A stretch of 64,000 bases of DNA from Amphibalanus amphitrite (lineage: Eukaryota), in the NCBI RefSeq assembly GCF_019059575.1, contig NW_024881729.1, forward strand, positions 544,406 through 608,405, read 5' to 3'. The notes under the pieces were generated by a model. The model ran no database searches and had not been told where the DNA came from. It was given only the letters and a program-made list of their open reading frames with translations. The position numbers and the translations under genes were made by a program. The number at the start of each line of letters is the position of its first letter. Position 1 is the first letter of the stretch. Positions 8,187-44,963 of the stretch are shown piece after piece.

Positions 8187-8537
8187 CGCTCCCCACGGAG
8201 CCTCCTGCCTGTACAGTATGTCCGTGTTTGTGTGTGTGAGCTGACCAGACAGTTTTTGAGAATGTGTGTAGCCGGCCGCGTCGGCCGCAGCCCAGTGCCA
8301 GCCGCGGCGGGAAGGGAGGGCCCGGCACGCCCACCCGCCGTCCGCCATCCCTGCGTCATCTATACAACTGTTTATACATGATGCAATACATGTTATTTTG
8401 TTGCAAAACAAATACCGACTCTGGATTGGATGGATCTAGAGTGGGTAATTCATCGACCTAAGGTTTGTGGATTACGGAATAGGCGGCCCTCAAGCCGCTG
8501 GAGTTAGAACTAAAACTATCAGTTCATCACACACAGC

Positions 8538-8543
8538 ATTTAT
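8538..8543 (-). terminator. Candidate poly(A) signal AATAAA for RAD54-like, about 0.7 kb downstream of the stop
   Basis: TTTATT on the plus strand; it is the only canonical hexamer in the 3' flank that I could see. Confidence 0.25.
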
Positions 8544-9226
8544 TAAATATCACATGAGATTTGCGCCGCTTCACAGTCTTGATGACAGGTTTACACATAT
8601 CGTCACTACATATCTAGACAAATACTTGCTTCTGAGTGGTCCAAATAAATGGCGTGACACAGACGGTATGCACAGAACAAAAACAATGACCTGTTGAACC
8701 GACCAACAGACGGCAGTGTCGCGGTTCACTTAGCGGCGACACCTGCTTCGACGATTCGATACGCTTAGCGTCGCACGATGGACTCGATTACTTCTCGGCG
8801 TCATGGACCGAGGATACTCGAACTAGGCGATGGGCATGTTTCATTCAGACATGAGACACGTTGCGCAGTTACAAAAAAAAAAAAATCACTCACCATTTAC
8901 ACTAGACTACTCATACGGTAATGACTGACGATCACCCACAGACACAAGCATTCTGACCCTCCCATCCCCCACACATCACACAAGACGTCCCTGAAGTGCA
9001 ACAGTTATTTAGAGATATCAAGTATCCACGACCTCAGACGAGCTCATGCTCGGTAAACTCATCATAATTACTACGAAGTCTCACAATGCGTCTGTTTTCA
9101 GGTTTGTCCGTCTCCACAGCCAAAGCTACCTCATCAAGCCTCCGAAACATACATGAGCCATGGTCCCCTCCTTTTCCAACATCCCCAGTCCCCACCTCCC
9201 CCTGCGAACCCTCCCCGCGTCCCCCC

Positions 9227-10785: not shown

Positions 10786-10984
10786 CTTGGCGCGTTTTTT
10801 GATGGTCATGCTGCCGTCGAGCCGGACGAAGCAGTAGCTGCGCATCTGGCAGAGGGTCTCGAACAGGTCGAGTGTCTGCGTGTAGTTGGAGACGAGCACC
10901 ACCTTGTCGCTGGTCTGCGTCTTCACCAGGGCCAGCAGGTAGTCCAGCACCGACACCTTGCCGGAGAGCTCCGGACGGACGCGT
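10786..10984 (-). CDS. RAD54L: RAD54-like, exon 10 ([44 protein letters not shown])
   Basis: Helicase C-terminal domain, motif IV region. CACTAG acceptor; AAG|GTGGGC donor. Confidence 0.85.
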
Positions 10985-11526
10985 CTAGTGGACACAGGGA
11001 GGGGGTATTAGACACATCAGAAGACACAGACACCCTGCCGGACAACTCCGGACGGACTCGCCTGGAGGACAGGGGCGGGTAGATATTAGAGGACAAAGAC
11101 ACCCTGCCGGACAGGTCCGGACGGACTCTCCTGGAGGACAGGGGCGGGTAGATATTGACACAGACACCCAGCTGCCGGACAGCTCCGGACGGACTCGTCT
11201 GGCGGACAGGCGGGTGCGGACTGCGGAATTTCAGATACGAGTGGACGCGGACACGCCTGGTGGACACAGGAGGGGAGAATGATATACTGTGGTGGTGTTT
11301 GCAGGTTAGTCATTCAGTTGCTTCACGGGATGCCCCTACTTTGTAACCTATACGGACCTTGCTAGTTTCCGACAGCCTCTAATATCGCGAGTCCGTCTGG
11401 GCAGGACTGTCATCCCTGACAAACTCACGGAGTATCTGTCTGAGTTCGTCTTGACTCTCTAACTCACTCTGTCGAGTGTCCGTCTGACTGTCTGAGTTAG
11501 CTCTGCCTCCCGAGTCCCCGACTCAC

Positions 11527-16834: not shown

Positions 16835-17117
16835 CAGGGCTGCGGAGTCGGAGTCGGAGTCGGAGTCGGTCGGAGTCGACAGTTGTGACCAGAGTCGGAG
16901 TCGGAGTCGGAGTCGATTTTAGAAACCCGAGCCGGAGTCGGAGTCACCGAAAATCTGTCGACTCCGCAGCCCTGCTAGGTCTGCAGAGTCGGAGTTGGGA
17001 GTTGGAGTCGGTCGGAGTTGACAATTCTGCCCGGAGTCGGAGTCGGAGTCGGAGCTGGTTTTTGAAAGCCGGAGTCGGAGTCGGAGTCGCCGAAAATCCA
17101 TCGACTCCGCAGCCCTG
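16835..17117. mobile_element. Two adjacent palindromic MITE-like units (16835-16974 and 16981-17117) of the same family, (GGAGTC)n arrays between CAGGGCTGCGGAGTCG TIRs
   Basis: Unit 1 starts CAGGGCTGCGGAGTCGGAGTCGG and ends CGACTCCGCAGCCCTG. Unit 2 is a near-duplicate. Confidence 0.55.
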
Positions 17118-17998: not shown

Positions 17999-18093
17999 TA
18001 GATATCAGTTGGGCAAACTAGGCGGCGGGAATCAAAATATGGAGGCATCAAAATATTGATTCTAGTGGGCGGAGCTTTGACCATATATGGGCA
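17999..18093 (+). repeat. 95-bp perfect inverted repeat, left copy; partner at 21508-21602; contains the palindromic 18-mer GAATCAAAATATTGATTC
   Basis: ATATCAGTTGGGCAAACTAGGCGGCGGGAATCAAAATATGGAGGCATCAAAATATTGATTCTAGTGGGCGGAGCTTTGACCATATATGGGCATA recurs as its reverse complement 3.5 kb downstream. Further GAATCAATATTTTGATTC-like motifs lie at 18240-18360. Confidence 0.85.
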
Positions 18094-18539
18094 TACGTGC
18101 AGACCATCACAGAAACGTCAATTCTTCAGCAACCGGCTATAATTTCAAGATAGTTTCTTCACAAAATGTAGAACAACGTTGAAGCTACCCGCCAGGCACG
18201 AAACAATAGCCCTAACCTCTTCGGTTAGTTTAGGAAAGCGTCTTGAAAATAATCAAGATATTGATTCATCACGGCGGCTAATCCCGGCGAGAATCAATAT
18301 TTTGATTCCGCAAACAGCTGGCTAATCATTATTTTGATTCTGAAATCAGCTGGTTTATCAATATATTGATTCTGCGAACTGACTTTCTGCAGACGTACTT
18401 CACTCTTCAAATTGACTTATGGAATGTTTCTTGTGTGCAAATAATGCAAATTCAATAAATTCATGAAGATATTATCAGCACAGGATCGTGTAATTTTTTC
18501 TAGACCTTATTCCCACGGTAGACCAGGGATTTTCAGCAC

Positions 18540-18739
18540 TCACCCTAGCTCCCTGCTCAAAGCTGCAAGCCTTCGAGGGAATGCGTCAAGGGAGCCGTGC
18601 TGACCTTTGTATAGGGGTTGTACTGAGTCGGAGCCGGAACCGAAGCCCGACCATTTTACTCGGAGCCGGAGCCGGAGCTGGAGCCGATTTTTCCTCCGGA
18701 GCCGAAGCCGTCTAACATTTTCACGACTCCACATCCCTG
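18540..18739 (-). repeat. Inverted partial copy of the GGCTCC-array element (compare 392-565)
   Basis: The reverse complement begins GCAGGGATGTGGAGTCG..(GGCTCC)n..GAGTAAAATGGTCGGGCTTCGG..TACTCAGTACAACCCCTATACAA. Confidence 0.6.
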
Positions 18740-21507
18740 CTTTGTAGCATTGATTTTGAGTAAAAAAAAGTTCACTTATCGTCTTTCACGTGTTCATGAA
18801 TGTGTTTCTACGCATCTGTATCCCGTCCCATTTCTGTGGAGTACAGTAAGAGATATTTCGCCGAACAATATACTCCTCAAGCCCGTTGCACAAATTGCAC
18901 AATTTGAATGAAAATATGATACACGGATGTATTTGCAGTCGCAAATAATACGATGATATTCATAACACATTTCACAACGATCCCTGCAATTGCCACACAT
19001 TTGCCATCACAAAGCCCTGTCGTTGATGCTCACATCCCATGCAAAGCAATACTCACTTTTAGGACACGTCTCTTATTCAATATGGCTACGTATTTGCAAA
19101 ACATGCAGTTAATAATATTTAAAACTGAGACCTAACCAATAAGACATACCGTGGACAGGTAAGAAAAAACAAATAAACTTCTGGAGAATGACTTCAACGT
19201 CTCGATGTTGCCTAATTACAAAGAGCAATTTCCGGTTTCGAATCAAATACATGAAATAAATATAAACAAAATTTGTACAGATACACTCAATATAGGGTTT
19301 ATGATTAGCACGGCTACCTAACACATCAATCCTGTCAGGTTGAGCCACTTATGTCCACACCCAAAGCAGGTCGCTTTGGAACATCACAAGATTCCATATT
19401 ACCACCGAAAACGGTCACCAATTGGTCTACGGATCAGCATCTTCAGAACATTCTCGACCGAAAAACTATCAGTCCTGCCTGTGTTTTGGTTCGCTTCATT
19501 TGGGCTATGCACACGTTTTTCTACTCCGGTTCTAGGGACGAGATAGCAGTCATCACGCGCTGCACCAGCTCGTTCTTTGACAGGTTGGTGACGCTGTCGT
19601 CATCCGGCAGGATAAACACGTGGCGCATTTCACCCTCGGCCCCGCCAGCCACATACACACTTCCTCACGTCATATTGTTTCTCGCCACGAGATCAAAGTT
19701 CAAAAAGTCGTGATGTAGGTAGTCTCCACCCAGCCCGAGTCAGGTACTCCACCGGTTGGTCGGGTGCGGCCAGGTCCGCGCAACGCCGCCCTACTTCGGT
19801 CGACGCTCTGGTTGACAGGGATGGCGTTGTCATACAGTTGCCTGTCGACTGAACAGCGATTCAAGACGCCATCCTTGACCCTCTGAAGCCAATCCCCGCA
19901 ACGACCAGTGTTTGATCATTGGTTGACCTGCAGCAAACAACAGAACACAATAATTAGGACATTTGTGGACAATAAATTAGGAAACTATATGTGTTATTAT
20001 TCTACTTGTTCAGCAACTATTAATTTTAGAATATATTCAATAAAAAATTAATTAAAAAATTAAATAATGTCACTTAAATTTCCACTGAACGCCACCAGGT
20101 GCGCCAACAACTGTCATCTCATGCAGTTATATAAATTCTGCCAAAAAAGTATATCTGAGGCCAGTTGTACCAACAGAAAAATAGGTGGCTGCTGGATTTT
20201 TTTTTTGTCTAAAAGTTACTTCACATACAGAGCATGAACGGTACAGCCTTATCCGTTTACGTGCCCATCATGTTAACGCTCCATATGTGAAGCAGTCTTT
20301 GGGCAAAAAAATTCCAGCAGGCAGCTATTTGTGTCGATAAAACTGGCCTCTATAATTAACTTTGGCATGGACAATCCTGAAAATTAACTATCCAGCATTC
20401 CCTGGACTGACATACATTAGACGCATAATTTTCTTGAAGACTACGCATAATGTAAATATGGCTTACACCATTCAGCAACTTGCTTTTGTTACACTTAAAA
20501 TAAGCATCATTAAATATGTAGCAAAAATGGGCGAAGCAATTACAAGCCAAGCATACATACCTACTATTTAAATAAGGCAAACACCAACATGCACTAAGAC
20601 CTTTCAATCTTAAATCGGAACAAGTCAATAACCTAGTTGCCCTTAAAAAATTTAAATGCTACAAATTAAAGTTGTAGCAACAATTGGGTGAGTGAGACAC
20701 AAGCAGAGGCTAAAACATCCAAATTATGTAAAATACTGGACATGCACTGCCCCCATTTCATGAGTCCACCCAACAATTCTATCATGTGAGACAAAACATC
20801 AGGCTTCTTGTAACTAATTTATACCGTAACTTTTAAAGGACATCATATTTCACTGAAATACTACACCTAAGACATCATTTTCGAAAAAATATAGCTTAAA
20901 AAGACAATAGAAGAGTGAGAAGGCGTCCCGCGCCGCTGATGTCGCTACCGCGCCATGTTCCTAAAACCATCTCTTAAAACGAGTTTTTGGTAAGAAACGT
21001 TAAGATCACATGCCTGAAATTGAAAAACACACTTCAAAGTATCTTAAAATATGATCCATTGTTACTTACACTTCAGAAAAGGTCGCTTAAACAAAATAAA
21101 ACCGGGAGCACTACGTTGCATCCAAACACCCACGACGCCGGCGCGAAATGGCGGGAACCGGAAATCGTGGCTAGATACAAAGAAAAAGAATATTTCTTAT
21201 AAATGAATTATACAACTAAATAACGCATTTTTCATTTTCTTTTAGACAAAATTATGAAAAAAATACAAAGGCTCGTCGTTAATGATAAACAGAGCAAGTT
21301 TTAACAGCACGTTTTTGTTGAATTATGGCGGCGAAATCTTTATGCCATTCGTAAAGGTACGCGCGACAAACGGCTGATAGCCATGCAGCGAAAAATTGAA
21401 GCGGGGAAGTTTTTTGTGTTGACTTGTCAAAAAATCTCGCCGTCATGGGGGTTTTTTCCGCCGTAACGGGTCGTCTGAAGGTGGGAATGTCCCAAATTGA
21501 ATCAAAA

Positions 21508-21602
21508 TATTGATTCTATGCCCATATATGGTCAAAGCTCCGCCCACTAGAATCAATATTTTGATGCCTCCATATTTTGATTCCCGCCGCCTAGTTTGCC
21601 CA
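21508..21602 (-). repeat. 95-bp inverted repeat, right copy
   Basis: Perfect reverse complement of 17999-18093. Confidence 0.85.
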
Positions 21603-21779
21603 ACTGATATGGCGATTGGCGTCTATTTCAATTTTGATTTTAACCAATGACATTTTCAGTGTTAAGTGTGAATTGATAATTGTGGGCACACACTATTAAA
21701 TGTGAAGATGAAGTCCAAGTAGATAAAAATCTAACGACTGGTCAGAGGTGCTGACGTATCCTAGCATTTTCGGTACCTA

Positions 21780-24700
21780 TCGGTAAAGCTGGCGTCACCG
21801 TCGGCGGTAGGTAGGTAGGTTATGTTGTGGGTTCAGTAGGTGGAACTATGGTCATGAGTACCCAAATATAGGAACGTTCCCATTTTTGGGAACGGAGTTC
21901 CCAAATATGGGAACGGGCGTTCCCATTTATGAGAACGGAAGTTAATTTTTCGGCCGTTCGCCCACTAAAACTCATTAGTGCATCACGTCTCAAAAAAGTG
22001 CACGCTAATTTAAGTATCTACTAAGTCGATTCCAGGACAAATCTTCGTATGGCATTTCTTCGTCGCGCAATTCTTCGTCCGCATTTCTTCGTCCGCAAAT
22101 CTTCGTCGGCGCATTTATTCGTGTCGCATAACTTCGTCTCGCATTTCTTAGTAAGCGCAAATATTCGTAGCGCATTTTTTCGTATCCGCATTTCTTCGTA
22201 CGCGCATTTCTTCGTCAAGCATTTTTTCGTCCACGCATTTCTTCGTCTACGCAAATCTTCGTCCGCATTTCTTCGTCCACGCAAATCTTCGTCTGCGCAT
22301 ATCTTCGTCCGCAAATCTTCGTCCCCGCAAATCTTCGTCCGCAAATCTTCGTCCACATTTTTTCGTCCACGCATTTCTTCGTCTACGCAAATCTTCGTCC
22401 GCATTTCTTCGTCCACGCAAATCTTCGTCCCGGCAAATCTTCGTCCGCAAATCTTCGTCCGCAAAACTTCGTCCGCAAATCTTCGTCTGCAAATCTTCGT
22501 CCGCATTTTTCGTCCACGCATTTCTTCGTCCACGCAAATCTTCGTCCGCAAATCTTTGTCTGCGCATATTTTCGTCCGCAAACCTTTGTCTCCGCTATCT
22601 TCGTCTCCGCAAACATTCGTCCACAAATGTGGTTCAATAAAACCATGAAGAAATATCAGACCATCAAGTGATTGACGAATTTAATGCATGGAATGGATGA
22701 TCGAAACTTTTGAAGTCAGGTAGATGAGGTCTGTCAGGTGAAGCTATTGTATTTGGGAGCCGAGAATTGAAACATTCCATATCATTTGTGTCCCGGACAT
22801 TCTTTTTTCGCGGTCGATGAATGACAATACAATCTCTTGTACCCTCGCCGGCATAGGCGGCGGAACGGGGAGGGCACCGGGGCACCGTTCCCCTCTTTAA
22901 TTTGGCCTTTTAACAGTAGCCCTATGGGCGTTGCATGGAAAGAATGGGACTAAAAGTCGGCAGTGCCAAGCCCCCCCCCCCCCCTAATTGAATGTGTTCC
23001 GCCGCTACTGCTCGCCGGACCTATTTGTTTTCTACATATACGCCGGCCGAGGGGGGGGGGGCGGGCACGACCCCCCCCCCCTTCCCCCCATCGCCGTTTC
23101 GCCACTGGTGGAGCTAGCGCGTCGCGGAAAAAAACGAGCGTGTGCGCCGTTACGAGACGCAGAGATTAATACCCGATTTTAAGGCCTTCTAGGTCAGGGG
23201 TCGGCTTACGGCCCGCGGGCCGGATCCGGCCAGGAGGGTGACGGTTCGATCCGGCCCGCGACCATCTGACGTCCGGCCCGCGGCTGGTATCATCGACTTA
23301 CATCGTGTTCCGGCCCGCGGTTCCTTCAGAAATCGACTCCGATATAAAAGTGACTTAAATGTGCTTTGGCACAATAGTTCTTCCTTCGCACACTTCATGA
23401 GTTTATAAACACCATTTGCGGGTGTTTTTGTCTAATTCTACTTCTAGACAAAACTTGCGCGGGCCGGACGTCAGATGGTCGCGGGCCGGATCCAACCGTC
23501 ACCCTCCTGGCCGGATCCGGCCCGCGGGCTGTAAGCCGACCCCTGACCTAGAAGGCCTTAAAATCGGGTATTAACCTCTGCGTCTCGTAACGGCGCACAC
23601 GCTCGTTTTTTCCGCGACGCGCTAGCTCCACCAGTGGCGAAACGGCGATGGGGGGGGGGGGGGTCGTACCCGCCCCCCTCGGCCGGCGTATATGTAGAAA
23701 ACAAATAGGTCCGGCGAGCAGTAGCGGCGGAACACATTCAATTAGGGGGGGGGGGGGCACGGCACTGCCGACTTTTAGTCCCATTCTTTCCATGCAACGC
23801 CCATAGGGCTACTGTTAAAAGGCCAAAATTAAAGAGGGGAACGGTGCCCCGGTGCCCTCCCCGTTCCGCCGCCTATGCCGGCGAGGGTACAAGAGATTGT
23901 ATTGTCATTCATCGACCGCGAAAAAAGAATGTCCGGGACACATGATATGGAATGTTTCAATTCTCGGCTCCCAAATACAATAGCTTCACCGGACAGACCC
24001 CATCTACCTGACTTCAAAAGTTTCGATCATCCATTCCATGCATTAAATTCGTCAATCACTTGATGGTCTGATATTTCTTCATGGTTTTATTGAACCACAT
24101 TTGTGGACGAATGTTTGCGGAGACGAAGATAGCGGAGACAAAGGTTTGCGGACGAAAATATGCGCAGACAAAGATTTGCGGACGAAGATTTGCGTGGACG
24201 AAGAAATGCGTGGACGAAAAATGCGGACGAAGATTTGCGGACGAAGATTTGCGGACGAAGTTTGGCGGACGAAGATTTGCGGACGAAGATTTGCCGGGAC
24301 GAAGATTTGCTGGACGAAGAAATGCGGACGAAGATTTGCGTAGACGAAGAAATGCGTGGACGAAAAAATGCGGACGAAGATTTGCGGACGAAGATTTGCG
24401 GGGACGAAGATTTGCGGACGAAGATATGCGCAGACGAAGATTTGCGTGGACGAAGAAATGCGGACGAAGATTTGCGTAGACGAAGAAATGCGTGGACGAA
24501 AAAATGCTTGACGAAGAAATGCGCGTACGAAGAAATGCGGATACGAAAAAATGCGCTACGAATATTTGCGCTTACGAAGAAATGCGAGACGAAGTTATGC
24601 GACACGAATAAATGCGCCGACGAAGATTTGCGGACGAAGAAATGCGGACGAGGAATTGCGCGACGAAGAATTGCCATACGAAGATTTGTCCGGTTACGTA

Positions 24701-30493: not shown

Positions 30494-30671
30494 CTGGAGA
30501 TCTACCTTGGCACGGAGCCGGTCTCGGACAGTCTGGTGCTGGCCGGACTGGACCTCGAACAGCCCGGGTTCGTGCTGAATGTGCTGGAGAGGATCGTGCG
30601 CCGGCGACCGTCCTCGTCTGACGGCCCGGGAGCGGGCGGCGGCGGCGTGCGGACCGTCACCGTGCACACAG
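30494..30671 (+). CDS. IQUB-like, exon (LEIYLGTEPVSDSLVLAGLDLEQPGFVLNVLERIV..; ubiquitin-like fold continues)
   Basis: CTCACAG acceptor; G|GTCGGT donor, phase 1. Confidence 0.5.
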
Positions 30672-31160
30672 GTCGGTCCCCGGAGCTTCCGCCGTGCAGG
30701 TTAGTCACAGTGAGCTGCCTTGTGGAGGGTAGGTCTTAGGGTCCCCTCTCGTAGACTCGGTTGTGAGCTATGTTTTGGGATTAGTCCTTTGTAGTTGCAT
30801 GGTCTTTGCCCAATCTTTTACTACTTTTTGGTAGATCTGCACATGAAATACCGTAGAATTGTACCGTAGAAGCGTGGAGTCATACCGGACACTTCAAGTT
30901 GGTGTCTCAGTCTATTGACCGTTCTAGATGGTTTGATTTGCTCAATTAATGACTAAGCATTCCCCATTCATGCCTCCTGGTAAAGGTAAGCCTTATGCAA
31001 ACGCGAATGTTGTTCATTCATGGTGCTGGCTACTTGGGGTGCCTCTCAACGACAGTTTAATGACACTTCCTAGGGTATCTATACCTTACGAACTGAACCA
31101 ATACCTTGCCCTGAGTTCAGCGTGACATATCTGACCTATTCGCCACTCTGTCCTGTGCAG

Positions 31161-31319: not shown

Positions 31320-31709
31320 GTGAGTCTTTCAGTTCGGAGCAGCGCGGAGTGCCGCGGACTCTACCGGCAGCTACGTTGAAGTTATGCTTATCGCGTGTTA
31401 AACCGTCGGTGGCCCGTGTCCCTGACTGGTTCCCACTATCCGTGTCTTTAACCCTCTGTGAACCTCGTGCTAGACTGTGATCCGTGTTCAGGACCGTGTC
31501 CGTGCCATTTTTCTGTGATCCGCGTCTGTGACCGTTGTCCGTGAACCATGTGCTATCGTGATCTTTGACCCATATTCTCGAAATCTCGACCCAACGGGCC
31601 TGTCCTCGACCCACGCCTGTTCGCAACTCGTGTCAGGTCGTGAATTGTCAGCGCCATTGATCTTAACCGTCCGTTCGTCCAGAGCGCCACGAGCGGGACG
31701 CGCAGACAG

Positions 31710-31864
31710 CATGGGGCCTGCCGGCGGCCGTGCAGACGAACCGCGACACGTGCACCCAGATGCCCAAACCGGGTGTGTGGCAGGACCACCGGCGCGAGCG
31801 GGTGCTGTCCTACAGCGGCGCCTACCAGACGGCTGACGAACTGCTCCAGCTGCGAACCGATAAG
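31710..31864 (+). CDS. IQUB-like, exon (..QTNRDTCTQMPKPGVWQDHRRERVLSYSGAYQTADELLQLRTDK; acceptor position uncertain)
   Basis: AAG|GTGAGA donor at 31865. The only phase-compatible acceptor is GACAG at 31709, which is a weak site. Confidence 0.35.
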
Positions 31865-32301
31865 GTGAGAGCGGCGCCGCGCTGGGTCTTGCACTGGCGG
31901 CATGCTCACAAACAGTATTACAGCCATGGTGTGGGATTTTGGAAATTATAACTAGCTTCGCTATGTTTAACCATTCATAAACAATCAAGTACCCTCACAT
32001 ATTTCGCTTAGCTTGTAAAAATAATTTATTTTGACACTTGACAGTGGTCTGGTCCATATCAGCGACAATCTGTGCCTCTCGCTGATATGCCGTGCCCCCC
32101 CCCCCCCCCCCACACGCACCAACAGTCTTCCCCTCGCCCTCACAGGTAGTCGTTCCTCACAAGCACTGGCGTCGCTGGCTGGCCCGTGTGACTGTCTCCC
32201 CGCGTCTGACTATGCTCCCGCTGTCTCTGCAGGCGATCGTTCTGCAGAAGTACTGGCGTCGTTTGTTGGGCTGTGTGTCTCTCCCACAGACAGGCCCCAA
32301 T

Positions 32302-34073
32302 CCGACGACCAAATCCGACACCTCGGGACGAAGAAGGCGCCAGGACCGGACCGGGTATGCACCGAACACCTGCGGCACTTCGGACCGACGGCCTACCGGA
32401 CCCTTCTGGCACTCATCAACAGATCGTGGTCCAACCTCGAGACGCCCGCCTCATGGCGACGGGCGACCATCATCCCTATCTTTAAGGCCGGCAAAGACCC
32501 CAAACAAGTGGGCAGCTACCGCCCGATCGCGCTCACGAGTCACATCGCCAAGCTAGCGGAGCGGATGATCGCGGCCCGGACGACCTACCTCATCGAGCGA
32601 GACCGACTGGTGCCCCCCGAACAGGTCGGGTTCCGCCGCGGGAGGTCGGCGGAGGACAGTCTGGCCCGCTTGGTCCAAACGGTTCAAGATGGCTGGAATC
32701 GCCCCAAGCCGAGACGAGGCCCGGAGGATGGCGTGACGGCGGACCGCTTTGTCCTCCTGGCGTTCGACTTCTCCCGTGCCTATGACACGATCGATCACCG
32801 GATGTTGCACCTGAAGCTCCTCAAGCTCCTCCCCAGATGTCTCGCGACCTGGAAATTCCGGTTCCTTCGCGGCAGGCGGGCCCGCGTAGAGGTCAACGGC
32901 GCGCACAGCAGCGAGCGCGTGTTCCGCGCGGGCCTGCCGCAGGGCTCGGTCCTGGCACCGACCATCTACACGCTCTGGGCGGCGGACCTTATCGAGACCC
33001 TGCGGAACGCCTCGGACCGCACGGACGTCCTGATGTATGCGGACGACAGGGCCACACTGAGCGCTGGAGCCACCGTAGAGCTTGCGGTGGCTCGCGCCCA
33101 GAAGTCGGCCGACGCCCTGGCCCGATGGGCAAGGCACTGGAAGATGTCCATCGCCGGACAGAAGACCCAGGCGCTGCTGCTGACTCAGCGGAGCAGGGAC
33201 GAGCGCGGCGTGCAACTCCTGGCGAACGGCACGCAGGTCACCGGTGGCACCAGCCTACATCTTCTGGGGGTGACCTTCGACAGACTTCTACACTTTAAAG
33301 ACCACTGCGACTCTCTGCTGCGGCGGAAGGTCCGGCCGCGGACGGCACAGCTGCGGAGGATGACCGGCCGGGCCTGGGGTCTCCGCGAGGCGCAGCTCAG
33401 GACAGTCGCGAACGGGTATGTCCGGGGAGCCCTTGAATACGCAGCGGGTGCCTGGCTCCCGGCCGCGTCCCCGTCACACGTTCAGCTGGTGGAGCGCGAG
33501 CTGCTGGCGGCAGCCCGGGTGGTGACCGGATGCCCAAGGTCCACCCCCAGGGATCCCCTGCTGGCCGAGGCTGGCATCCCTTCAGCATGGTCCACCAGGA
33601 AGACGCTGGCCGCGCGAACGCTCTGCCGAGCGCTCGCCCTGCCGGAGGACGACCCTCTTCGCCGCGTCGCGGAGGCCGACCCACCCACTCGACTGCGGTC
33701 TACCACCGGCTGGCGACAACTGGGGCGATCGGCGCTGATCGAGGCGGGCGCCGAGGGAGTGACGGTGGAGCCGCGCCTCGAGGTTCCCCTCCTCCCGTGG
33801 ACAACCTGCCGCCCGATCGCCTTCAATCTGGACGTGGGACCCGGCGGTCGTCGAGCCTCCTCCAACGAGACGCGACGAGAGGCCGCGCGGCAGCACCTGG
33901 CGGCGCTCCCAGCCCAGGCCACGTGGATTTGGTCCGACGGCTCTGCGGACGCTGGGGTCAGGCGAGGCGAGGGGGCGGCGCCATCATCTTTACCGCGTCG
34001 GGGGAGACTCTCGAGGTTGAGGTGGTGGCGGGAGACCTCTGCTCCAGCACCCGTGCGGAGCTGTTCGCCCTGA
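32302..34073 (+). pseudogene. LINE RT-domain reading frame (frameshifted relative to the downstream RNase H/CCHC part at 33957-34801)
   Basis: The two overlapping track ORFs (680 aa and 423 aa) together cover RT, RNase H and the zinc finger. Confidence 0.6.
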
Positions 34074-34837
34074 GGGCGGCGCTGGAGCGGGTCCGGGATG
34101 AGCCGTCCCCCGCCCCGCTGGTGGCGTGCTCTGACTCACGAGCCGCCCTGAGCCTCCTCAGCGCGGGAGCGGCCGCCCAGACCTCCACTTTCGGCGCGGC
34201 GATCTGGAGGACGCTGCTGGACATTGCCGAGCGCCGGCAGGTGACCCTGCAGTGGGTCCCTGCTCACTGCGGGCTGGCGGAGAACGAGCGCGCTGACGCC
34301 CTGGCCAAGCAAGCGGCCACCCTGCCCCAGGGCGCCGTGCCCTCGGACGCTCGGCCCCTGACACGGGCAGTTCATCGGACGACCACACGTCAGTGGCGCG
34401 AAAACTGGCCCGACTCCTTTTTCAAGGCTATCTTCGGGAGCACCCTGCCGCTCCCCATCCCCGGAGAGGACCGAGAGGCCGCCATCTCGGTGCACCAGTG
34501 GAGGGTGGGCCACTGGGGCCGCTCGCTCCAATACCTGCACCGGATCGGCCGCCACCCCTCCGTGGCATGCCTGCAGTGCCCCGATAAGCGGTGCCCCACG
34601 GCGCTCTGCGCCGTGTGCCGGGAAGAGGCGGACGTGCCGGAGCACGTGTTGCTCCGCTGCCCGGCCCTCGCTGGCGCCCGCCTGCGGCTAACTGGCAGCA
34701 TTCACGTCGACCCGTCGCGGCTGCGGGACGCCGACCTGGTGGCTGCCTTGGAGGCCGGCTACCTTCGCCATAGGGAGCCTCTCGGCTATGGTCCTCCGTA
34801 AGGAGGTCCCAGGGGGAACAACAACAACAACAACAAT
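32302..34837 (+). mobile_element. 5'-truncated non-LTR retrotransposon (LINE) with RT, RNase H and a C-terminal CCHC; I/R1/LOA-type domain order; frameshifted
   Basis: RT motifs KAPGPD, FDFSRAYDTIDH and YADD. The RNase H block (TRAELFALRAALE) is in a different frame after a roughly 1-nt indel near 33960-33980. CCHC is CLQCPDKRCP..C..C. A (CAA)6 tail sits at 34819-34836. A 10-bp target-site duplication AGGCCCCAAT lies at 32292-32301 and 34838-34847. Confidence 0.75.
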
Positions 34838-34959
34838 AGGCCCCAATTGTCTGACGATGTTCCCTCTCCACCACAGGCGATCGTTCTACAAAAATACTGG
34901 CGCCGCTGGTTGGCCCGTGTTACTCCCCTGTCTGACGATATTCACGCTCTCCACCACAG

Positions 34960-35079
34960 GCGATTCTTCTACAGAAGTACTGGCGCCGCTGGCTGGCCCG
35001 TCGCCGGGTACAGCGGATGGCCAGGGAGCGGGATGTCGTGCTCCAGTGGATTGTGGACGACGCAGAACGGCGCAAACAG
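34960..35079 (+). CDS. IQUB-like, IQ-motif exon (AILLQKYWRRWLARRRVQRMARERDVVLQWIVDDAERRKQ)
   Basis: CCACAG acceptor; CAG|GTCAGA donor, phase 0. It matches the IQ consensus and is the last member of a tandem array of degenerate copies. Confidence 0.6.
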
Positions 35080-35322
35080 GTCAGATACGGGTCATTGGGT
35101 CATCGGAGGTCACCAGAGACTCCGGAGTGCGGCATTGCAACGTTAGTCGAGTGACCAACGCTCACACTGAACACTAATTGACCTATCTTAGATTTAGTGT
35201 TGTTAATGTTTTCTTTGTAGCTTATCTCTCTCATGGCGATCATTTCCTCCTCTTATCTGCAGCTGTTGCTGTAATTCTGTTCGTTATTGCCGACGCTGAC
35301 CTGTATTCGGCCTGGGTCCCAG

Positions 35323-35589
35323 GCTCGGCTGAAGCGTCGCGCCGGAGTCGTCGAGCGGAAGATGGACCCCAAGAGCAAGAACGACTTCGACATTCTGTTC
35401 AGCTCGCTGGAGGCCTGGCGGAAGAAGGCCATCGCCTACTGTTACTCCACCAAGTCGGGTGGTGAGCTGAAGGCGGCGCTGTGTCAGCTGCTGGAACAGG
35501 AGGCGGAGATGCTGAAGGCCATCAACGGCCATCAGAGCCGCGCGGCCGCCTGCGGACAGGCCAAACGCATACACCGGCTGCTGGAGAAG
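35323..35589 (+). CDS. IQUB-like, exon (ARLKRRAGVVERKMDPKSKNDFDILFSSLEAWRKKAIAYCYSTKSGGELKAALCQLLEQEAEMLKAING..)
   Basis: CCCAG acceptor; AAG|GTACGT donor, phase 0. Confidence 0.6.
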
Positions 35590-37387: not shown

Positions 37388-37796
37388 GTCAGCGGAGGAT
37401 TACTGACGGGTCAGTGGTACTCTAGTATATGTGAGAGAGGACAGCCTGCAGTCGAAGTACGGGGAGCGTGCGTGGGGTTTGGTCACTGGCAAGTCTTTCC
37501 TCGCTACATACGGTGTGAGAAAGGTGTACGACTTTCGCTACCCATGTGTGTGCGAGGCCTACGTGTGACTTATGATCTGGGTATGGGACAGGTTAATGAG
37601 TCTGACACATGTATTTGTTTCTGTGACAGGAGTCTGACTTCCGCCACCTGGTGCTGTCGCTGTGGGGCGGCCAGTCCTGTCTGACATACCACCTCTGTCT
37701 GTGTGTTACAGGAGTCTGACTTCCGTCACCTGGTGCTGTCGCTGTGGGGCGGTCAGTCCTGTCTGACATACCACCTCTGTCTTTCATGTGTTACAG

Positions 37797-37982
37797 GAGT
37801 CTGATTTCCGTCACCTGGTGCTGTCGCTGTGGGGCGGCCAGTCCTGCCTGAGCGCCGATCCGGACCTCTATGAGCTGCTGCTCTGCCGCTGGGACGTGGA
37901 ACAGCCCTGGACGCCTTGGAACTGCGTCCTGCTCACCAGAGACGAGACCGAGGCGCACTACAAGCTCGGAAAGCCGCAGCAG
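37797..37982 (+). CDS. IQUB-like, exon (ESDFRHLVLSLWGGQSCLSADPDLYELLLCRWDVEQPWTPWNCVLLTRDETEAHYKLGKPQQ)
   Basis: TGTTACAG acceptor; CAG|GTCAGT donor. Two degenerate tandem copies of the acceptor plus exon start lie immediately upstream, at 37621-37796. Confidence 0.6.
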
Positions 37983-39404: not shown

Positions 39405-42400
39405 TCAGTTGTCTAGCTCCAGTCGCACGATCTTGGTGACCGGTCGTTTGTACACACCCTTCCGCGTGTTCACCTCCACGACGCGGACGAGGCCGTCCTG
39501 ACCGGGGAACGTTCTGGCGACTCTGCCCAGGGGCCACGAGCCTCGAGGCACCGATGAGTCTGCGATCAGCACCATCTCTCCTTCACGCAGATTGCGTGAC
39601 ATCTCCGTCCACTTCTGTCTTGTCTGAAGACTTGGTAAGTATTCTCTGATCCAGCGCCGCCAGAACTCTGTGTTCAGCTGCTGGAGTCGACGCCACCTTT
39701 TTCTGGCGTTCTCGGGCGTGTCAGCGTCTTCAGAGCAGATATCCAGCTGGGTGTGACCGAGCAGGAACGCTGCCGGGGTGAGCGGTGGCGCATCAGACGG
39801 GTCAGATGAGACCGCGGTCAGTGGCCTGGTGTTCAGAAGCGCCTCCGCGCGGCAGAACGCGGTCATCAGTTCTTCATCTGTCAGATGGGCGGCTTCTAAA
39901 GTTCTTCGTAGTGCCCGCTTCGCACTTTTTACCATCGCCTCGCAGCCACCATTGAAATGAGGCGCTCCCGGAGGAATGAACTTCCAGTCTATGTAGAAGT
40001 GAGCGGTTTGTCTCTTGATCACTTCTTGGTCCAGAGCTCCGACTAGCTTCCGTAGCTCGCGACTTGCTCCAACAAAATTCTTCCCGTTGTCGGAGATGAT
40101 CTCAGACGGCCTCCCTCTTCGAGCGATGAATCTCAGGAATGCTCGCAGAAAACTGTCAGTGTCGAGTCCGCAGGCCATCTCCAGGTGCACCGCTCTACTC
40201 TGTAAGCACAGGAAGACGCAGAGGTAGCGTTTCAGCCGAGTCTTCCCTCTTCCCTGTCTGGTCTCGAACGGTCCTGCGAAGTCCACCGCGCAGTGACTGA
40301 ACGCGCGGCAGGAATACATCACTTCAGCTCCAGTCTTCGGCGCCATCATCTGCTTCTCTGGCTTCTTGGATCTCTTGATGCACTCTGTACAAGATCTGAT
40401 GCATTTCTTGACTTCTTCTCTGGCACTTATCACCCAGAACCGCTGGCGAAGTTCCGATATGGTGTGCTCAACGCCGAGCTCGTGTTCACCCTGCTCATGC
40501 ACATGACGTACCAGGAGACGGGTCACTTGATGGCCCTTTGGGAGAAGCACTGGGTGCTTCACATCAAATGGCAAGTCGCTTCTCTGGAGGCGTCCGCCGA
40601 CTCGCAGTAGTCCATGGTCATCTACAATCGGACACAGTCTGCGGATGCTGCTGCTTTTGAAGACTTGACCCTGTTTGCTTTCACCGGACGGGACTGCGAC
40701 TTGTGCTTCCAGCTGTCTTCGCTCCTTGGCAAAACATTCCTGAGCTCGCAGGAGCCAGAATGTCTCTGCAGAAGACATCTCCCGCCTGTCCAGTGATGAT
40801 GATGTGCCGTCGTTGTGTTCATCTGGGCACTCTCCTCTTGTTAGTCTCTTCAGTTTCTCGATAAACCTTAGAACCCACGCCGTCACCCTGACCAGCCTCA
40901 TCCAGCTTGAGAAGTGACTTGGGTGTAGCCGGAGGTCATCTTGAGTTTCTTTGATCAGAGTGCTGTGTACTGTCTTCGTCTTCTTCATCTCGCTCCTGTC
41001 GAATGGCTCTGATTGTAGATCTCTTGGCATTGGCCAGTTTTCTCGCTCTTCCACAAGAAATGCAGGGCCCGACCACCACAGGTCACTGGACTTCAGAACT
41101 TCCAGTGTTACGCCTCTGCTGGGAAGATCTGCTGGGTTTTGATTTCCGGGAACATGCTGCCATTGCTCAGGATCTGTCACTTCCCGAATCTCTGATATCC
41201 GATGCGCCACGAACGACTGGAACTGCTTGACTTCATTTCTGATCCAACAGAGCACGTTGATGGAGTCAGACCAGAACAGCACATCTGATATCTGGATCCT
41301 GAATGCTGCACAGGCCTTCTTCGCCAGTCGCAGACCCAGGAGGGCAGCCATCAGCTCAAGACGAGGGATGCTGACCTTTCTAGAGCGTGGGGTGACTCTG
41401 ACTCTTGCTAGAGCCAATCTTGCGGCAACGCCATCTTCACTTGTGGTCACGACGTAGACTGCGGCTGCATATGCCTGCTCAGAGGCATCTGAGAAGGCGT
41501 GTAGCTTCTGAGCTGTAGCCTTGGAGAAGGGGTGGATGCATCGGGGCACTAATAAAGAGCTCACGCGCTCCAGCTCCGTCACCCATTCCGCCCACTTGCG
41601 CTTCATGTCGGCGGGCAGCTCATCGTCCCATTGAAGACCTCGGGACCAAGTTTCCTGGAATAGGATCTTGCTTCGGACGGTAAATGGACTCATCAAGCAT
41701 AGAGGATCGAAGATGGCTGCGAGCGTCTTGAGACAGATCCTCTTGGTAGGCTTTGGCGTCATGTTCTTCTGAATGGTAGCATTGCTGCTAATGCTCAGCT
41801 TGTCTTCATCCGCATTCCAAACGACTCCAAGTGCATTGGCACGAGTTTGAGGGCCATCTTCGATAGTGAAACTTGACTCTTTGGCTCGCTCTTCTTCTGG
41901 TATGCTGTCCGTCACTGAGCTGCTACTGCTTCTCCATTTTCTTATCTTCATGCCGGCCAACTGCATCAGCTCTGTGAGTTGCTTTCTGGCTTCCTTCGCT
42001 TCATCTTCACTTTCGAATGAGACGAGGGCATCGTCCATGTAGAACGAGTCCTTGATCGTGTTGGAAGCGAGAGGATATCGTGAAGCGTGCTGCTTGGCAT
42101 TCTCCTTCATCGCGAACTGGGCTGCAAATGGTGCTGCAGCGTTTCCGAACAGCCACCTTTGTGCTTCATAGATATCTGGCTCTCTTCCAGCTTCGCAGTT
42201 GCGCCAGAGCACACGATGGAACTTCTGATCACCATCGGGTAGCTTCACCTGGAGAAACATCTCCGCGACGTCTCCAGTCAGAGCGATCGCATGACGGCGA
42301 AATCCCAGCAGGACTTCTATCAGGTCGTTACAGATGGATGGTCCAGGATAGAGTTCATCGTTCAGACTTCTCCCTTCAAATTTTGCAGCTGCATCGTACA

Positions 42401-44963
42401 CTACCCGTATCTTCGTCGTGGCGCGATCTTCCTTTACTACCGGGAAGTGGGGCAAGAACCAGCCGTCTAAGGATGCAGCCTCTCTATCTTCAGGTACGAT
42501 CTTCTTAAGGTATCCTTTAGATACGTAATCTTCAAAATTCGCATTGTACTTTTCTAGAAGAGACCTGTCTTCATTCTTTATCAGGCTCTGCTCAGTTTTT
42601 CTTAATCGGCTCACAGCGTATCCGAAGTTTCCACTCAACTCGGGCTGATCACGACGCCAAGGTACTGCTACCTCATATCGCTCGCCGTCGTACTTGAGTG
42701 AGTCTTGTGCCTTCTTAAGTGCGGACTTTTCCTCATACGAGAGAATCTTCTCATTCTCGTTTCTCACTCCGAGTAGTTCCAAGTCGGTCATAGCATGGAT
42801 GGCGTCTATTTCATCCTGATTGTTCACTGATACGTGAGTCCGTAGCGTCTTGCTGAAGTTTTTCTTCTTCGCATCTTCCACAGGCCCGAAGGCTGTCCAG
42901 CCGAGCGGGGTTTTCACTCCCACAGGTTCATGTGCTTCGCCTTGTCTTGTCTCCAGAGGAAGGAACAGCGACGTCGTAGAAGCCGTCAGTCCGATCAGCA
43001 TATCGATCCCCTGTCTTCGTGAAACGTTGGGGAAAGATATGTTCTTCAGATGGTTCCACTTGCTCTTCGTCATGTTCCAGTCAATTTTGGCTGAAGCGCT
43101 GGAGAGGTCATTAATGACGTACACGCCAATGCTGGTCTTGAACGGGCCGATTGTGGAACACATTTCCACCTCCGACTTCTTCATGTTCACTTGACTGCTG
43201 CCTTCCACTGTTCCCAGCTCAAACTGCTCTGGAACACCCTGGAGACCCAGCTCCTTAGAAGCGGCGTCCGTCAAGAAACTGGCATCCGAGCATGGATCCA
43301 GCAGGGCGTTGACGATAAGAGATCGTCCATTCGCCTTCACCTTCACGGGAACTGTCTGAAAAACGACGCGGCCTGAGTTCTGAGTCGCTGAAGCAGCGGT
43401 CCGATGAGTTAGCTCCCCTTCATGCTGTTCCTGAACTGGCAGTCTGGCAGTAGTATGACTTTGTGTCATCGCAGGGGTAGAATCACCGCGAGTCGCGTGG
43501 AGAAGACTATGATGGCTGCCACCGCATCCTGCCACTTGACATCCTGGGAACTTCCTGCAGCTTAATCCACGATGAGTGCCAGCCAGACAGCGAAAACATA
43601 TTCGCTTCGTCTTGCAGTAGCTGTACCGGCTGCCGACTGTCCACTTCTGGAACAGTGGGCAATCTGGAAGTTGGTGTTCTTTCTCGCAATAGAGACAGCT
43701 TGATGCCCCATGTTGGCTCTGTCTCTCTGTCTTGGTACTCCAGGTCTTCTTCATTTTCCTGGGAGAGTTCGTCTCTTCCTTCTTCATTCGGGAGCTGCTT
43801 GACATTTCTAGAGCTTCTTGTTCGTATTGGGCTTCTTCTGTGAGCCAGGTGGCGAACATCTTCAGATTGTCCTTCGCTCTTTGTCCTTGGATCCATCTTC
43901 GGTAGTTCTTCAGAAATGTCACATGTAGCTTTTCTTTGACGAGGATGTAGTAGGCGGACACGTCGGCCAAATCGCCTGCTGAGCCATGCTCTTCAAGATT
44001 TGTCACCAGGCTTTGAACCCGATCAGCGAGTTCCTCCAAATCTCTCGTAGCGCCCGGACGGACTGGCCTGATGCTCCGAATCTCCTCCAGCTGATGCCTG
44101 ATCCGTCTGCTGACGCCGCCGTACTTGCGTTCCAGCTCTGCCATGGCCTTCGTGAACCCAATGTCTGACGGTCTGTACCTGTCTACTAGTTTCAGAGCGT
44201 CACCTGCGAGACAGTTCTTGAGTTGCATCATTTTAAATTTTCCAGGAACGTTTTCGATGGTTACAAAGGCGTCAAACGTAGCTCGCCAGTCCTCGTATCT
44301 GTTTGTCTCGCCTGTAAAGACTGGAAGCTGTGGTCTCTTCAGTCCGTAGTTCGCCCAGTCGACCTTCACTCTCTCGTTATCTCGTGGCGACCGAGTGCTG
44401 TGACGTCGACCTTCGACTTCAGGTGAGGCTGCTTGCTCTTCTGGTTGCTGAAGCGCATCAGTTTCTTCAGTGACTGACTGATGCGACTCCGTTTCGTGCC
44501 TCAGGGCCTTCGTCTCGTTGCTACGCTTGTCTAGAGCTGCAGAAACTACAGTTCTCACTGATTTATTTGCCAGCCGCAGAGTCTTGGATATTTCTCGCTG
44601 AATATCGTCGTATTCTTCCCACGGATCTTCATCCTCCTCTTGTCCACTAGACATCTTGTTGGCCATCTCTTCCACTATGTTCAACAACTCATCGCTTGCC
44701 TTGTCTAGCTCAGAACCTATCTGCGAGATCTGCGAGACAGTTAGCTCACTGGTTTCAATCAGTGAATGCAGTCTGTTCTGTCCATCGCGTAGATCCCGAA
44801 GTAGTCTCGACTTCTTTCTTCTTAAATTCACTTCAGTTGTCCTCACATGGCTTTCTGTAGAAGTGGTAGTTGACATTGTCCCTTCAGTTCCATCCGTTAC
44901 TTCTTCTTGATTCTGACTGGTTTCAGCTTCACCTTGCTGCGTCTTCTTGCGCCTGTTACCCAT
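39405..44963 (-). CDS. Gag-Pol polyprotein (1852 aa) of the BEL/Pao element
   Basis: Uninterrupted ORF with diagnostic motifs: PQLPVFTGE..W..F..F (Gag DUF1759), CLYCEKEHQLPDC, LLDPCSDASF (protease), FYMDDALV (RT), DASEQAYAAAVY (RNase H), and H..H..C..C plus DFAGP..E (integrase). Confidence 0.85.
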   Translation of the reverse strand: MGNRRKKTQQGEAETSQNQEEVTDGTEGTMSTTTSTESHVRTTEVNLRRKKSRLLRDLRDGQNRLHSLIETSELTVSQISQIGSELDKASDELLNIVEEMANKMSSGQEEDEDPWEEYDDIQREISKTLRLANKSVRTVVSAALDKRSNETKALRHETESHQSVTEETDALQQPEEQAASPEVEGRRHSTRSPRDNERVKVDWANYGLKRPQLPVFTGETNRYEDWRATFDAFVTIENVPGKFKMMQLKNCLAGDALKLVDRYRPSDIGFTKAMAELERKYGGVSRRIRHQLEEIRSIRPVRPGATRDLEELADRVQSLVTNLEEHGSAGDLADVSAYYILVKEKLHVTFLKNYRRWIQGQRAKDNLKMFATWLTEEAQYEQEALEMSSSSRMKKEETNSPRKMKKTWSTKTERQSQHGASSCLYCEKEHQLPDCPLFQKWTVGSRYSYCKTKRICFRCLAGTHRGLSCRKFPGCQVAGCGGSHHSLLHATRGDSTPAMTQSHTTARLPVQEQHEGELTHRTAASATQNSGRVVFQTVPVKVKANGRSLIVNALLDPCSDASFLTDAASKELGLQGVPEQFELGTVEGSSQVNMKKSEVEMCSTIGPFKTSIGVYVINDLSSASAKIDWNMTKSKWNHLKNISFPNVSRRQGIDMLIGLTASTTSLFLPLETRQGEAHEPVGVKTPLGWTAFGPVEDAKKKNFSKTLRTHVSVNNQDEIDAIHAMTDLELLGVRNENEKILSYEEKSALKKAQDSLKYDGERYEVAVPWRRDQPELSGNFGYAVSRLRKTEQSLIKNEDRSLLEKYNANFEDYVSKGYLKKIVPEDREAASLDGWFLPHFPVVKEDRATTKIRVVYDAAAKFEGRSLNDELYPGPSICNDLIEVLLGFRRHAIALTGDVAEMFLQVKLPDGDQKFHRVLWRNCEAGREPDIYEAQRWLFGNAAAPFAAQFAMKENAKQHASRYPLASNTIKDSFYMDDALVSFESEDEAKEARKQLTELMQLAGMKIRKWRSSSSSVTDSIPEEERAKESSFTIEDGPQTRANALGVVWNADEDKLSISSNATIQKNMTPKPTKRICLKTLAAIFDPLCLMSPFTVRSKILFQETWSRGLQWDDELPADMKRKWAEWVTELERVSSLLVPRCIHPFSKATAQKLHAFSDASEQAYAAAVYVVTTSEDGVAARLALARVRVTPRSRKVSIPRLELMAALLGLRLAKKACAAFRIQISDVLFWSDSINVLCWIRNEVKQFQSFVAHRISEIREVTDPEQWQHVPGNQNPADLPSRGVTLEVLKSSDLWWSGPAFLVEERENWPMPRDLQSEPFDRSEMKKTKTVHSTLIKETQDDLRLHPSHFSSWMRLVRVTAWVLRFIEKLKRLTRGECPDEHNDGTSSSLDRREMSSAETFWLLRAQECFAKERRQLEAQVAVPSGESKQGQVFKSSSIRRLCPIVDDHGLLRVGGRLQRSDLPFDVKHPVLLPKGHQVTRLLVRHVHEQGEHELGVEHTISELRQRFWVISAREEVKKCIRSCTECIKRSKKPEKQMMAPKTGAEVMYSCRAFSHCAVDFAGPFETRQGRGKTRLKRYLCVFLCLQSRAVHLEMACGLDTDSFLRAFLRFIARRGRPSEIISDNGKNFVGASRELRKLVGALDQEVIKRQTAHFYIDWKFIPPGAPHFNGGCEAMVKSAKRALRRTLEAAHLTDEELMTAFCRAEALLNTRPLTAVSSDPSDAPPLTPAAFLLGHTQLDICSEDADTPENARKRWRRLQQLNTEFWRRWIREYLPSLQTRQKWTEMSRNLREGEMVLIADSSVPRGSWPLGRVARTFPGQDGLVRVVEVNTRKGVYKRPVTKIVRLELDN

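Follow-up and report, generated by a model that had tools for sequence, protein, structure and literature searches.

In the genome of the barnacle Amphibalanus amphitrite (Arthropoda: Cirripedia), a short unit that can encode an IQ calmodulin-binding motif appears four times within one gene, and the row of copies is interrupted by a long interspersed nuclear element (LINE). The question that this locus raises is whether the copies are alternative exons, which would give the protein a variable number of IQ motifs, or something else. In this paper we looked at the 64-kb window that contains the locus (the whole 64,000-nucleotide stretch analyzed, from contig NW_024881729.1; A. amphitrite coordinates are those of the window). 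Based on our analysis, the array is very probably a ‘mirage’-type minisatellite lying across the 3' splice site at the end of intron 5 of the IQUB gene, with its upstream units being intronic decoys. This reading builds on what can be observed directly, which is the anatomy of the array, the gene model, the single IQ unit in the annotated messenger RNAs (mRNAs) and in the orthologs, and decoy acceptors that are intact and have no donors.

The open stretches that flank the array match IQUB, a radial-spoke protein of cilia (PDB 9fqr and 8j07; E about 1e-30), and isoform X1 of RefSeq IQUB (687 amino acids) gives a 100% spliced mapping onto the window, in 13 exons. Coding exon 6 scores 21.5 bits against the Pfam IQ family (PF00612; cut-off 20.3 bits, E 1.7e-4) and aligns with the one IQ motif that mammalian IQUB has (PDB 9fqr and 8j07). 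RefSeq isoforms X1 and X2 (nine XP accessions in the cluster) are gene models that read ...LRTDK/AILLQKYWRRWLARRRVQ... (a slash inside a motif marks the splice junction) and have one IQ unit each. One IQ motif is also found at the orthologous position in mammalian IQUB and in IQUB of the barnacle Pollicipes pollicipes (sequences L003 and L004). Isoform X2 begins in an alternative frame of exon 3 (30579-30698) and is devoid of the ubiquitin-like domain. A third barnacle is represented by a metagenomic contig (L001; ENA ERZ25068762) that carries the orthologous IQUB of a related species. Once the LINE and one copy of its target-site duplication (TSD) are removed, intron 5 of A. amphitrite has 549 nt, and the orthologous intron has 433 nt in L001 and 393 nt in Pollicipes. 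The features of the locus, including hits of nhmmer and of Tandem Repeats Finder (TRF), are the following:

31683..31864, plus strand: IQUB coding exon 5, ending ...LQLRTDK with donor AAG/GTGAGA (exact mapping of RefSeq isoform X1)
31865..34959, plus strand: IQUB intron 5, 3095 nt, holding three putative decoy units and the LINE
32095..32111, plus strand: poly-C tract of 17 C, directly 5' of unit 1 (TRF)
32110..32190, plus strand: unit 1 (c1), putatively the oldest decoy; nhmmer E 2.4e-19; acceptor ...ccctcacag/G at 32145/32146, 9.7 bits
32195..32291, plus strand: unit 2 (c2), putative decoy; nhmmer E 5.9e-21; acceptor ...tctctgcag/G at 32232/32233, 9.7 bits
32292..32301, plus strand: 5' copy of the TSD, AGGCCCCAAT, a perfect 10-mer
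32302..34837, plus strand: 5'-truncated non-LTR (non-long-terminal-repeat) retrotransposon (LINE), sense to IQUB; 2536 nt between the TSDs
34838..34847, plus strand: 3' copy of the TSD, AGGCCCCAAT, a perfect 10-mer
34848..34920, plus strand: unit 3 (c3), putatively the youngest decoy; nhmmer E 5.1e-24; CTGAC, pyrimidine tract and acceptor ...ccaccacag/G at 34876/34877, 7.3 bits
34921..34959, plus strand: unit 4, intron-derived part, with the working 3' splice site of intron 5; branch-point-like CTGAC motif, pyrimidine tract and AG; acceptor 8.3 bits
34960..35079, plus strand: IQUB coding exon 6, the sole real IQ exon; 120 nt, phase 0-0; AILLQKYWRRWLARRRVQRMARERDVVLQWIVDDAERRKQ; donor CAG/GTCAGA

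A repeat search of the window returned a direct-repeat family of four copies (32133-32187, 32220-32274, 34864-34918 and 34947-35001), with identities to the reference copy of 76, 71, 100 and 91%, respectively. The spacings between them are 87, 2644 and 83 nt, and the second becomes 98 nt after the insert and one TSD copy are subtracted. In TRF an array is seen at 34848-35001, with a period of 83 nt and 89% matches. A profile hidden Markov model built from the four 85-nt units and searched across the window with nhmmer recovers exactly four places, all within 32110-35002 (E 5e-24 to 2e-19), and the next match has E>2; there are four copies and only four.

By anchoring the copies on their AG it can be shown that each unit, 83-98 nt long, is made of two parts. 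One is about 41 nt of the intron 3' end, with a branch-point-like CTGAC, a pyrimidine tract and the AG; the other is the first 42 of the 120 nt of the IQ exon (35%), which encode AIVLQKYWRRWLAR in unit 3. Past these 42 nt the copies revert to intron-like sequence (GTTACTCC..., GTGACTGT...), and only the last one runs on as ...RRRVQRMARERDVVLQWIVDDAERRKQ to the donor CAG/GTCAGA at 35079/35080. What is repeated is therefore an intron/exon junction and not an exon.

The exon-derived parts of units 1-4 translate as VVVPHKHWRRWLAR, AIVLQKYWRRLLGC, AIVLQKYWRRWLAR and AILLQKYWRRWLAR..., respectively. In unit 1 (VVVPHKHWRRWLAR) the IQ glutamine is gone, and neither unit 1 nor unit 2 has an IQ motif any more (VVVPHKHW... 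and ...RRLLGC); the copies hold at most the first 14 residues of the motif. Identity in the exon-derived parts of the old copies is down to 61-69%, and unit 3 has 5 mismatches to the real copy in its 42 exon-derived nt. In Pollicipes, a tract of 14 C lies about 50 nt upstream of the IQ acceptor (L003 about 5747-5762), the place equivalent to that of the poly-C tract in front of unit 1, so the array seems to have expanded in the space between the exon and a conserved poly-C.

The LINE landed in the intron-derived tail of unit 2. Two Pfam domains are found in it, RVT_1 (E 2.7e-24, about 32499-33275) and RNase_H (E 5.1e-13, about 33974-34318), and since the reverse transcriptase (RT) and RNase H are in different frames, one frameshift should lie near 33965-34070. 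The 3' part has a Cys-rich C-terminus followed by an (AAC)6 tail (34817-34836). The element contains no endonuclease or ORF1 (the first open reading frame, ORF), and its 5' end lies inside the RT region, which indicates 5' truncation. It thus combines an RT ORF, a simple-repeat 3' tail, a flanking TSD and a truncated 5' end, as LINEs do. No second copy was found in the window or in the other sequences compared. The 10-mer AGGCCCCAAT is present exactly twice in the window (32292 and 34838), where about 0.06 occurrences are expected for a random 10-mer. As this TSD-flanked LINE splits tandem units, it was inserted into a pre-existing array. In another A. amphitrite assembly, GCA_009805615.1, a 1361-residue gene model (L002 1-1761) joins RVT_1 and IQUB domains; most likely the intronic LINE was taken for coding exons in this model, which implies, indirectly, that the LINE is present in that assembly too.

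For the splice signals we used position weight matrices built from 37 real acceptors and 37 real donors of A. amphitrite IQUB and RAD54L and of Pollicipes IQUB. The acceptors of units 1, 2 and 3 score 9.7, 9.7 and 7.3 bits, compared with 8.3 bits for the real one and a mean of 7.1 +/- 3.4 for real sites. The best candidate donors after the upstream copies score -0.7, 2.5 and -5.4 bits, compared with 8.9 +/- 3.2 for real donors and 9.4 bits for CAG/GTCAGA of exon 6. An earlier note on this DNA, made from the letters alone, had described four IQ-coding copies, two on each side of a LINE that carries a 10-bp TSD and was inserted into an existing array, with a proper donor at the last copy only (34960-35079). 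All of this holds: the real exon is above the Pfam IQ threshold (21.5 vs 20.3 bits), and the TSD is unique to its two sites and encloses RVT_1 and RNase_H. The note's view of the units as exon copies has to be given up, as each is about 41 nt of intron 3' end joined to the first 42 of 120 exon nt.

The IQ exon is not the only place in the window with this architecture. All other TRF arrays whose period is 60-100 nt lie across an acceptor as well, and a fifth acceptor array, with a unit of about 48 nt, was found by self-BLAST:

37622-37851, plus strand: IQUB exon 12 array, 82 nt x 2.8; the real exon starts at 37797
10948-11215, minus strand: RAD54L exon 10 array, 69-77-nt units, about 3.8 copies; exon 10786-10984
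62892-63133, minus strand: 95 nt x 2.5 array in a TPR-repeat gene; start of the real exon, 62926
59814-59983, plus strand: array of about 48 nt x 4 in a MAGE-homology-domain gene; start of the real exon, 59964; AG lost from the most 5' copy

Read in the direction of transcription, the last copy in all five arrays is the real exon. In the four other arrays, almost every decoy acceptor has a score similar to that of the real one (in RAD54L up to 11.5 bits, the real one being at 9.0), and none of these four arrays involves a repeated motif. The unit of the IQUB exon-12 array is bounded by a GTCTGA microhomology. RAD54L is the minus-strand neighbour of IQUB; its exons show 98% identity to the A. 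amphitrite RAD54-like protein, 91% to Pollicipes pollicipes and 73% to Branchiostoma, and RAD54L protein of A. amphitrite can be placed on the window without a mismatch. An amphioxus origin of the DNA, suspected on account of the mirage literature, was rejected on the strength of these identities and of the exact mapping of the RefSeq barnacle proteins.

Similar arrays are found in the two other barnacles. The L001 exons are 75-95% identical in nucleotides to those of window IQUB. Its IQ acceptor has no LINE and one degenerate extra copy, with an exon-derived part that ends at +50 and not at +42, and a 24-31-nt array begins at the donor of the IQ exon. In the same contig an array of 48 nt x 1.9 spans the donor of the ortholog of window coding exon 4, one of 74 nt x 7 is at another acceptor and one of 53 nt x 2.6 is at the last acceptor. 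The exon-12 acceptor of L001 (11918-12896) carries 79 nt x 12.4, 97% alike, where A. amphitrite has 2.8 copies. The exon-12 arrays of the two species have a common exon-side junction after CTGA, with CTGAC in the copies and CTGAG in the exons, and their intron parts differ; this is the pattern that either concerted evolution of an old array or a recurring event bounded by microhomology should produce.

In Pollicipes the IQ exon has no acceptor array, and an array of 53 nt x 9.2 spans its donor (L003 5924-6412). Two more donor arrays are found in Pollicipes RAD54L, 41 nt x 3.2 and 44 nt x 9 (L004 14265-14393 and 14769-15166); each unit of the Pollicipes donor arrays contains the last 1-14 exon nt followed by GTGAGC or GTGGGT. 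There is also an extra acceptor copy at IQUB exon 7b, an array of 29 nt x 15 that ends at a PAN3 acceptor and one purely intronic array, 38 nt x 24. The IQ acceptor thus has four units in A. amphitrite, one degenerate extra unit in L001 and none in Pollicipes; around the IQ exon there is an acceptor array in the first species, a degenerate extra acceptor copy together with a donor array in the second, and a donor array in the third.

One of these arrays belongs to an intron that is not present in A. amphitrite. Exon 35323-35589 is undivided there, and L001 has a phase-1 intron at this place (STKSG/GELK; 7812-8880) with seven 74-nt acceptor units. A gain of this intron by duplication in L001 was considered and rejected, because in Pollicipes, too, an intron interrupts this codon in the same phase (L003 6790-7156); there it has one extra acceptor copy and a GC donor, G/GCAAGT. 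As the intron exists in Pollicipes and L001 and is absent only in A. amphitrite, it was precisely lost in the latter.

Is the position of the arrays at exon boundaries more than coincidence? As a null, a tolerated 50-80-nt segment was placed at random in the four exactly mapped genes. Of such placements, 10-16% span an acceptor, 10-16% span a donor and 68-80% are purely intronic. In the mapped genes, all three A. amphitrite arrays span acceptors (3/3, p roughly 0.004) and four of the six Pollicipes arrays are at boundaries; overall it is 7/9, p about 0.006 by our own arithmetic. The boundary excess is real, in a small sample. RAD54L of Branchiostoma floridae and of the salmon louse Lepeophtheirus salmonis shows no boundary-spanning arrays.

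A mechanism that fits these data is that a segment of ~83 bp was repeatedly duplicated in tandem, by replication slippage or unequal exchange and possibly seeded by microhomology. Slippage or unequal exchange is favoured since the GTCTGA microhomology that bounds the exon-12 unit fits it. The array would then have expanded, leaving the two 5' units old and decayed and the two 3' units young, and the 5'-truncated LINE would later have retrotransposed into the intron-derived tail of unit 2. In vivo the last acceptor alone would be used, which alone can give an in-frame mRNA; it may be chosen because only this copy precedes the remaining 78 nt of the exon and the donor, as exon definition would predict. 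Use of a decoy would add at least 83 nt and shift the frame, and the transcript would probably go to nonsense-mediated decay (NMD). On this reading the array is neutral to slightly harmful and not a source of extra IQ motifs. We also considered a reverse-transcribed lariat intermediate as the origin of the units. This is not supported, as the 5' limits of the units are at, or a few nt upstream of, CTGAC-like motifs and not consistently at a branch A, and the exon-12 microhomology fits slippage.

Several points weigh against this explanation. Simple slippage does not account for the concentration of arrays at splice sites; one may speculate that the conserved terminal copy re-seeds the array and so anchors it, or that the structure-prone pyrimidine tract draws arrays to splice sites. 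Unit 3 has three substitutions attributable to it since its split from the real copy, and all are synonymous, a small sample with p roughly 0.02-0.05 by a rough estimate; as the exon-derived (5/42) and intron-derived (about 4/31) parts of unit 3 have diverged equally, we take this pattern as chance. Units 1 and 2, although old, have not lost acceptor strength relative to the real site, which could hint that selection maintains them. Finally, that only the last acceptor is used is predicted from RefSeq gene models and orthology and not from reads.

The hint of selection leads to the alternative that survives best, although we consider it unlikely. Here the decoys would be selected regulators, either as ‘poison’ 3' splice sites that make NMD tunable or as a reservoir of branch points and pyrimidine tracts that aids the real exon. 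Such a role would explain why decoy acceptors score as high as the real site even where the exon-derived part is at 61-69% identity, why arrays persist at orthologous acceptors across barnacles (2.8 vs 12.4 copies at exon 12, with the common exon-side junction) and why they are enriched at boundaries over the random-placement null. Yet copy number, unit length and exon side vary freely by species, the array at the IQ exon being on the acceptor side in A. amphitrite and on the donor side in Pollicipes, and an array that two other species carry was lost in A. amphitrite with its whole intron. The IQ array also accommodates a LINE, and a pyrimidine-rich composition can last without selection.

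A much less probable option is the one that the earlier note had left open, that the units are functional cassette or mutually exclusive IQ mini-exons giving isoforms with a variable number of calmodulin-binding IQ units. It takes its appeal from unit 3, which encodes an intact AIVLQKYWRRWLAR, has only synonymous changes of its own (three) and is followed, right after codon 14, by a GT that would make a 42-nt in-frame mini-exon; the decoy acceptors are also all strong. But this GT, in the GTTACT that follows the 42 exon-derived nt, scores -5.4 bits. The only frame-preserving donor candidates are CGT/GTTACT (-5.4 bits, the 36th percentile among all GT dinucleotides of the window) and CGT/GTGACT (-0.7 bits), and both are without the +5 G that is present in 37/37 real barnacle donors. 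Splicing from the unit 3 acceptor to the real donor would add 83 nt and shift the frame, and neither 83 nor 98, the unit lengths, is a multiple of three. Compared with cassette exons, the copies have acceptors and no usable donors, and frame and ORF are not kept in every copy. Units 1 and 2 have no motif to offer, the 14-residue insert would have merely partial IQ motif spacing, and the annotated isoforms, as well as the orthologs from Pollicipes to mammals, never have more than one IQ unit. The same architecture is seen at four other exons of the window where no motif is repeated. The lack of usable donors, the frame mismatch, the lost motifs and the single-unit isoforms together do not support this reading.

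Between the two A. amphitrite assemblies, in a comparison of arrays that covered the RAD54L array only, this array is identical over 441 nt; the locus in GCA_009805615.1 is 98.6-99.95% identical to the window over the shared part, with one 3.6-kb indel. An assembly artefact, from collapsed or mis-joined haplotypes or long-read stutter, is hardly credible even with the high heterozygosity of barnacle genomes, differences of 0.05-6% between the window and the other assembly and this indel, given inter-copy differences of 9-39% that exclude stutter copies, a LINE with clean TSDs within the array that the RT-IQUB model implies in GCA_009805615.1 as well, the identical RAD54L array and comparable arrays in two further barnacle species whose sequences come from independent projects.

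The window contains several other elements. Just downstream of IQUB, on the minus strand, is a BEL/Pao LTR-retrotransposon ORF (39405-44963; 1852 amino acids without stops) with Peptidase_A17, RVT_1, integrase, DUF1759 and DUF5641 domains, and it is probably a young element. Palindromes that resemble miniature inverted-repeat transposable elements (MITEs) are found at 410-821 and 16836-17117, with (CGGAGT)n / (GGCTCC)n runs and inverted termini CAGGGCTGCGGAGTCGGAG...CTCCGCAGCCCTG; at 16836-17117 there are two such elements in tandem. Two inverted blocks of ~600 bp, made of a 16/30/46-nt satellite (22038-22628 and 24099-24698), flank about 1.5 kb and may be the two ends of a large transposon. 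The segment of 3.6 kb that the other A. amphitrite assembly lacks is at 18005-21606 and represents an indel polymorphism. An open frame of 1184 codons (3526-7077, plus strand) is very GC-rich and of low complexity, with no clear Pfam family, and at 5782-6405 it has about 19 in-frame repeats of 33 nt (11 amino acids) of the type SPRQ(E/D)xH(F/L)(S/N)(Q/H)P. The other local repeats fall into three kinds, the MITE-like (CGGAGT)n palindromes, the inverted satellite blocks and coding repeats; the first two were examined and are not mirages. An Rfam scan of the window gave no matches.

How does the IQ array compare with known systems? ‘Mirage’ minisatellites are, according to later papers, reported for amphioxus Adh3 by Canestro et al. 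(2002, NAR 30:2871), and they are described later for the amphioxus globins (Ebner et al., 2010, PMC3087553) and PGBD5 (PMC3902484), and also for TnC, RDH and presenilin. In amphioxus the units are 10-160 bp, alleles vary in copy number and no mRNA effect is reported, and the mechanism is stated as unclear (PMC3087553, PMC3902484). The IQ array shows the same structure, that is, tandem units of minisatellite size, within the amphioxus range, with intron and exon in each and the authentic exon in terminal position. As in amphioxus, the units lie head-to-tail across an intron-exon boundary, the splice site is duplicated and the authentic boundary is the terminal copy; AG or GT signals are present in the copies, yet the mRNA is reported, or in the IQUB gene models annotated, as normal, and there are acceptor-side and donor-side versions. 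Copy number differs among alleles in amphioxus and among species in barnacles, and concerted evolution inside arrays may be common to both. The differences are the barnacle host and the age of the IQ array, which is old enough for two decayed units and a LINE. The range of mirages so far is that of cephalochordates, and the barnacle IQ array falls outside it. In the open-access literature we found no mirage reports for barnacles or other arthropods, no genome-wide surveys and no counterpart to a density of five acceptor arrays per 64 kb.

Another related process is intron gain by tandem duplication of an AGGT segment, which was proposed in the Rogers 1989 model and described by Hellsten et al. 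(2011, PMC3265369) and for potato RdRp (PMC4974935). There, too, a short intragenic tandem duplication copies splice signals, and the mRNA is restored by copy-to-copy splicing. In contrast, no new intron arises at the IQ exon, where the duplication edges intron 5, which is common to all three barnacles.

In tandem exon duplication, a complete exon is copied together with its two splice sites, and its length is compatible with the reading frame. Such duplication reportedly leads to mutually exclusive or cassette exons, as Kondrashov and Koonin in 2001 and Letunic and colleagues in 2002 are said to have described. The IQ array resembles it in having tandem coding copies inside a gene with an acceptor before each, and differs from it in that only the first 35% of the exon is copied, without a donor and in a frame-incompatible unit.

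Decoy or pseudo 3' splice sites and poison exons are strong unproductive intronic signals, and they are usually single, unrelated sequences. Use of the IQ units, like that of known decoys, would cause a frameshift and NMD, but the units are paralogues of the real site, arranged in series, and have the same exon sequence downstream.

The IQ array is, then, a barnacle addition to the known mirage class, with a LINE insertion. As a single locus it is of modest interest; the lineage-wide pattern is more interesting, as intact serial 3' or 5' splice sites stand beside the real ones in several unrelated genes of three barnacle species, and the annotated mRNAs use the terminal copy only. We lean slightly against, but take seriously, the broader idea that barnacle genomes carry mirages at a sizeable fraction of introns, recurring or persisting at the same exons across lineages. 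If true, this would point to a mutational process targeted to splice-site regions, or to selection that keeps serial decoys, and it would offer a natural test bed for how the spliceosome picks the last of up to 12 near-identical acceptors. The copies amount to a natural experiment, in that they share branch point, pyrimidine tract, AG and 30-50 exon nt, and the rest of the exon and the donor mark the real one. There is also a hazard for annotation, since decoys and a sense-oriented LINE can mislead gene predictors or pass for an IQ-repeat expansion. All this is relevant to models of intron and exon-boundary evolution. Compared with amphioxus, our findings suggest that the mirage phenomenon is not a cephalochordate oddity, and mirages may have arisen convergently in some marine invertebrates whose genomes are highly polymorphic.

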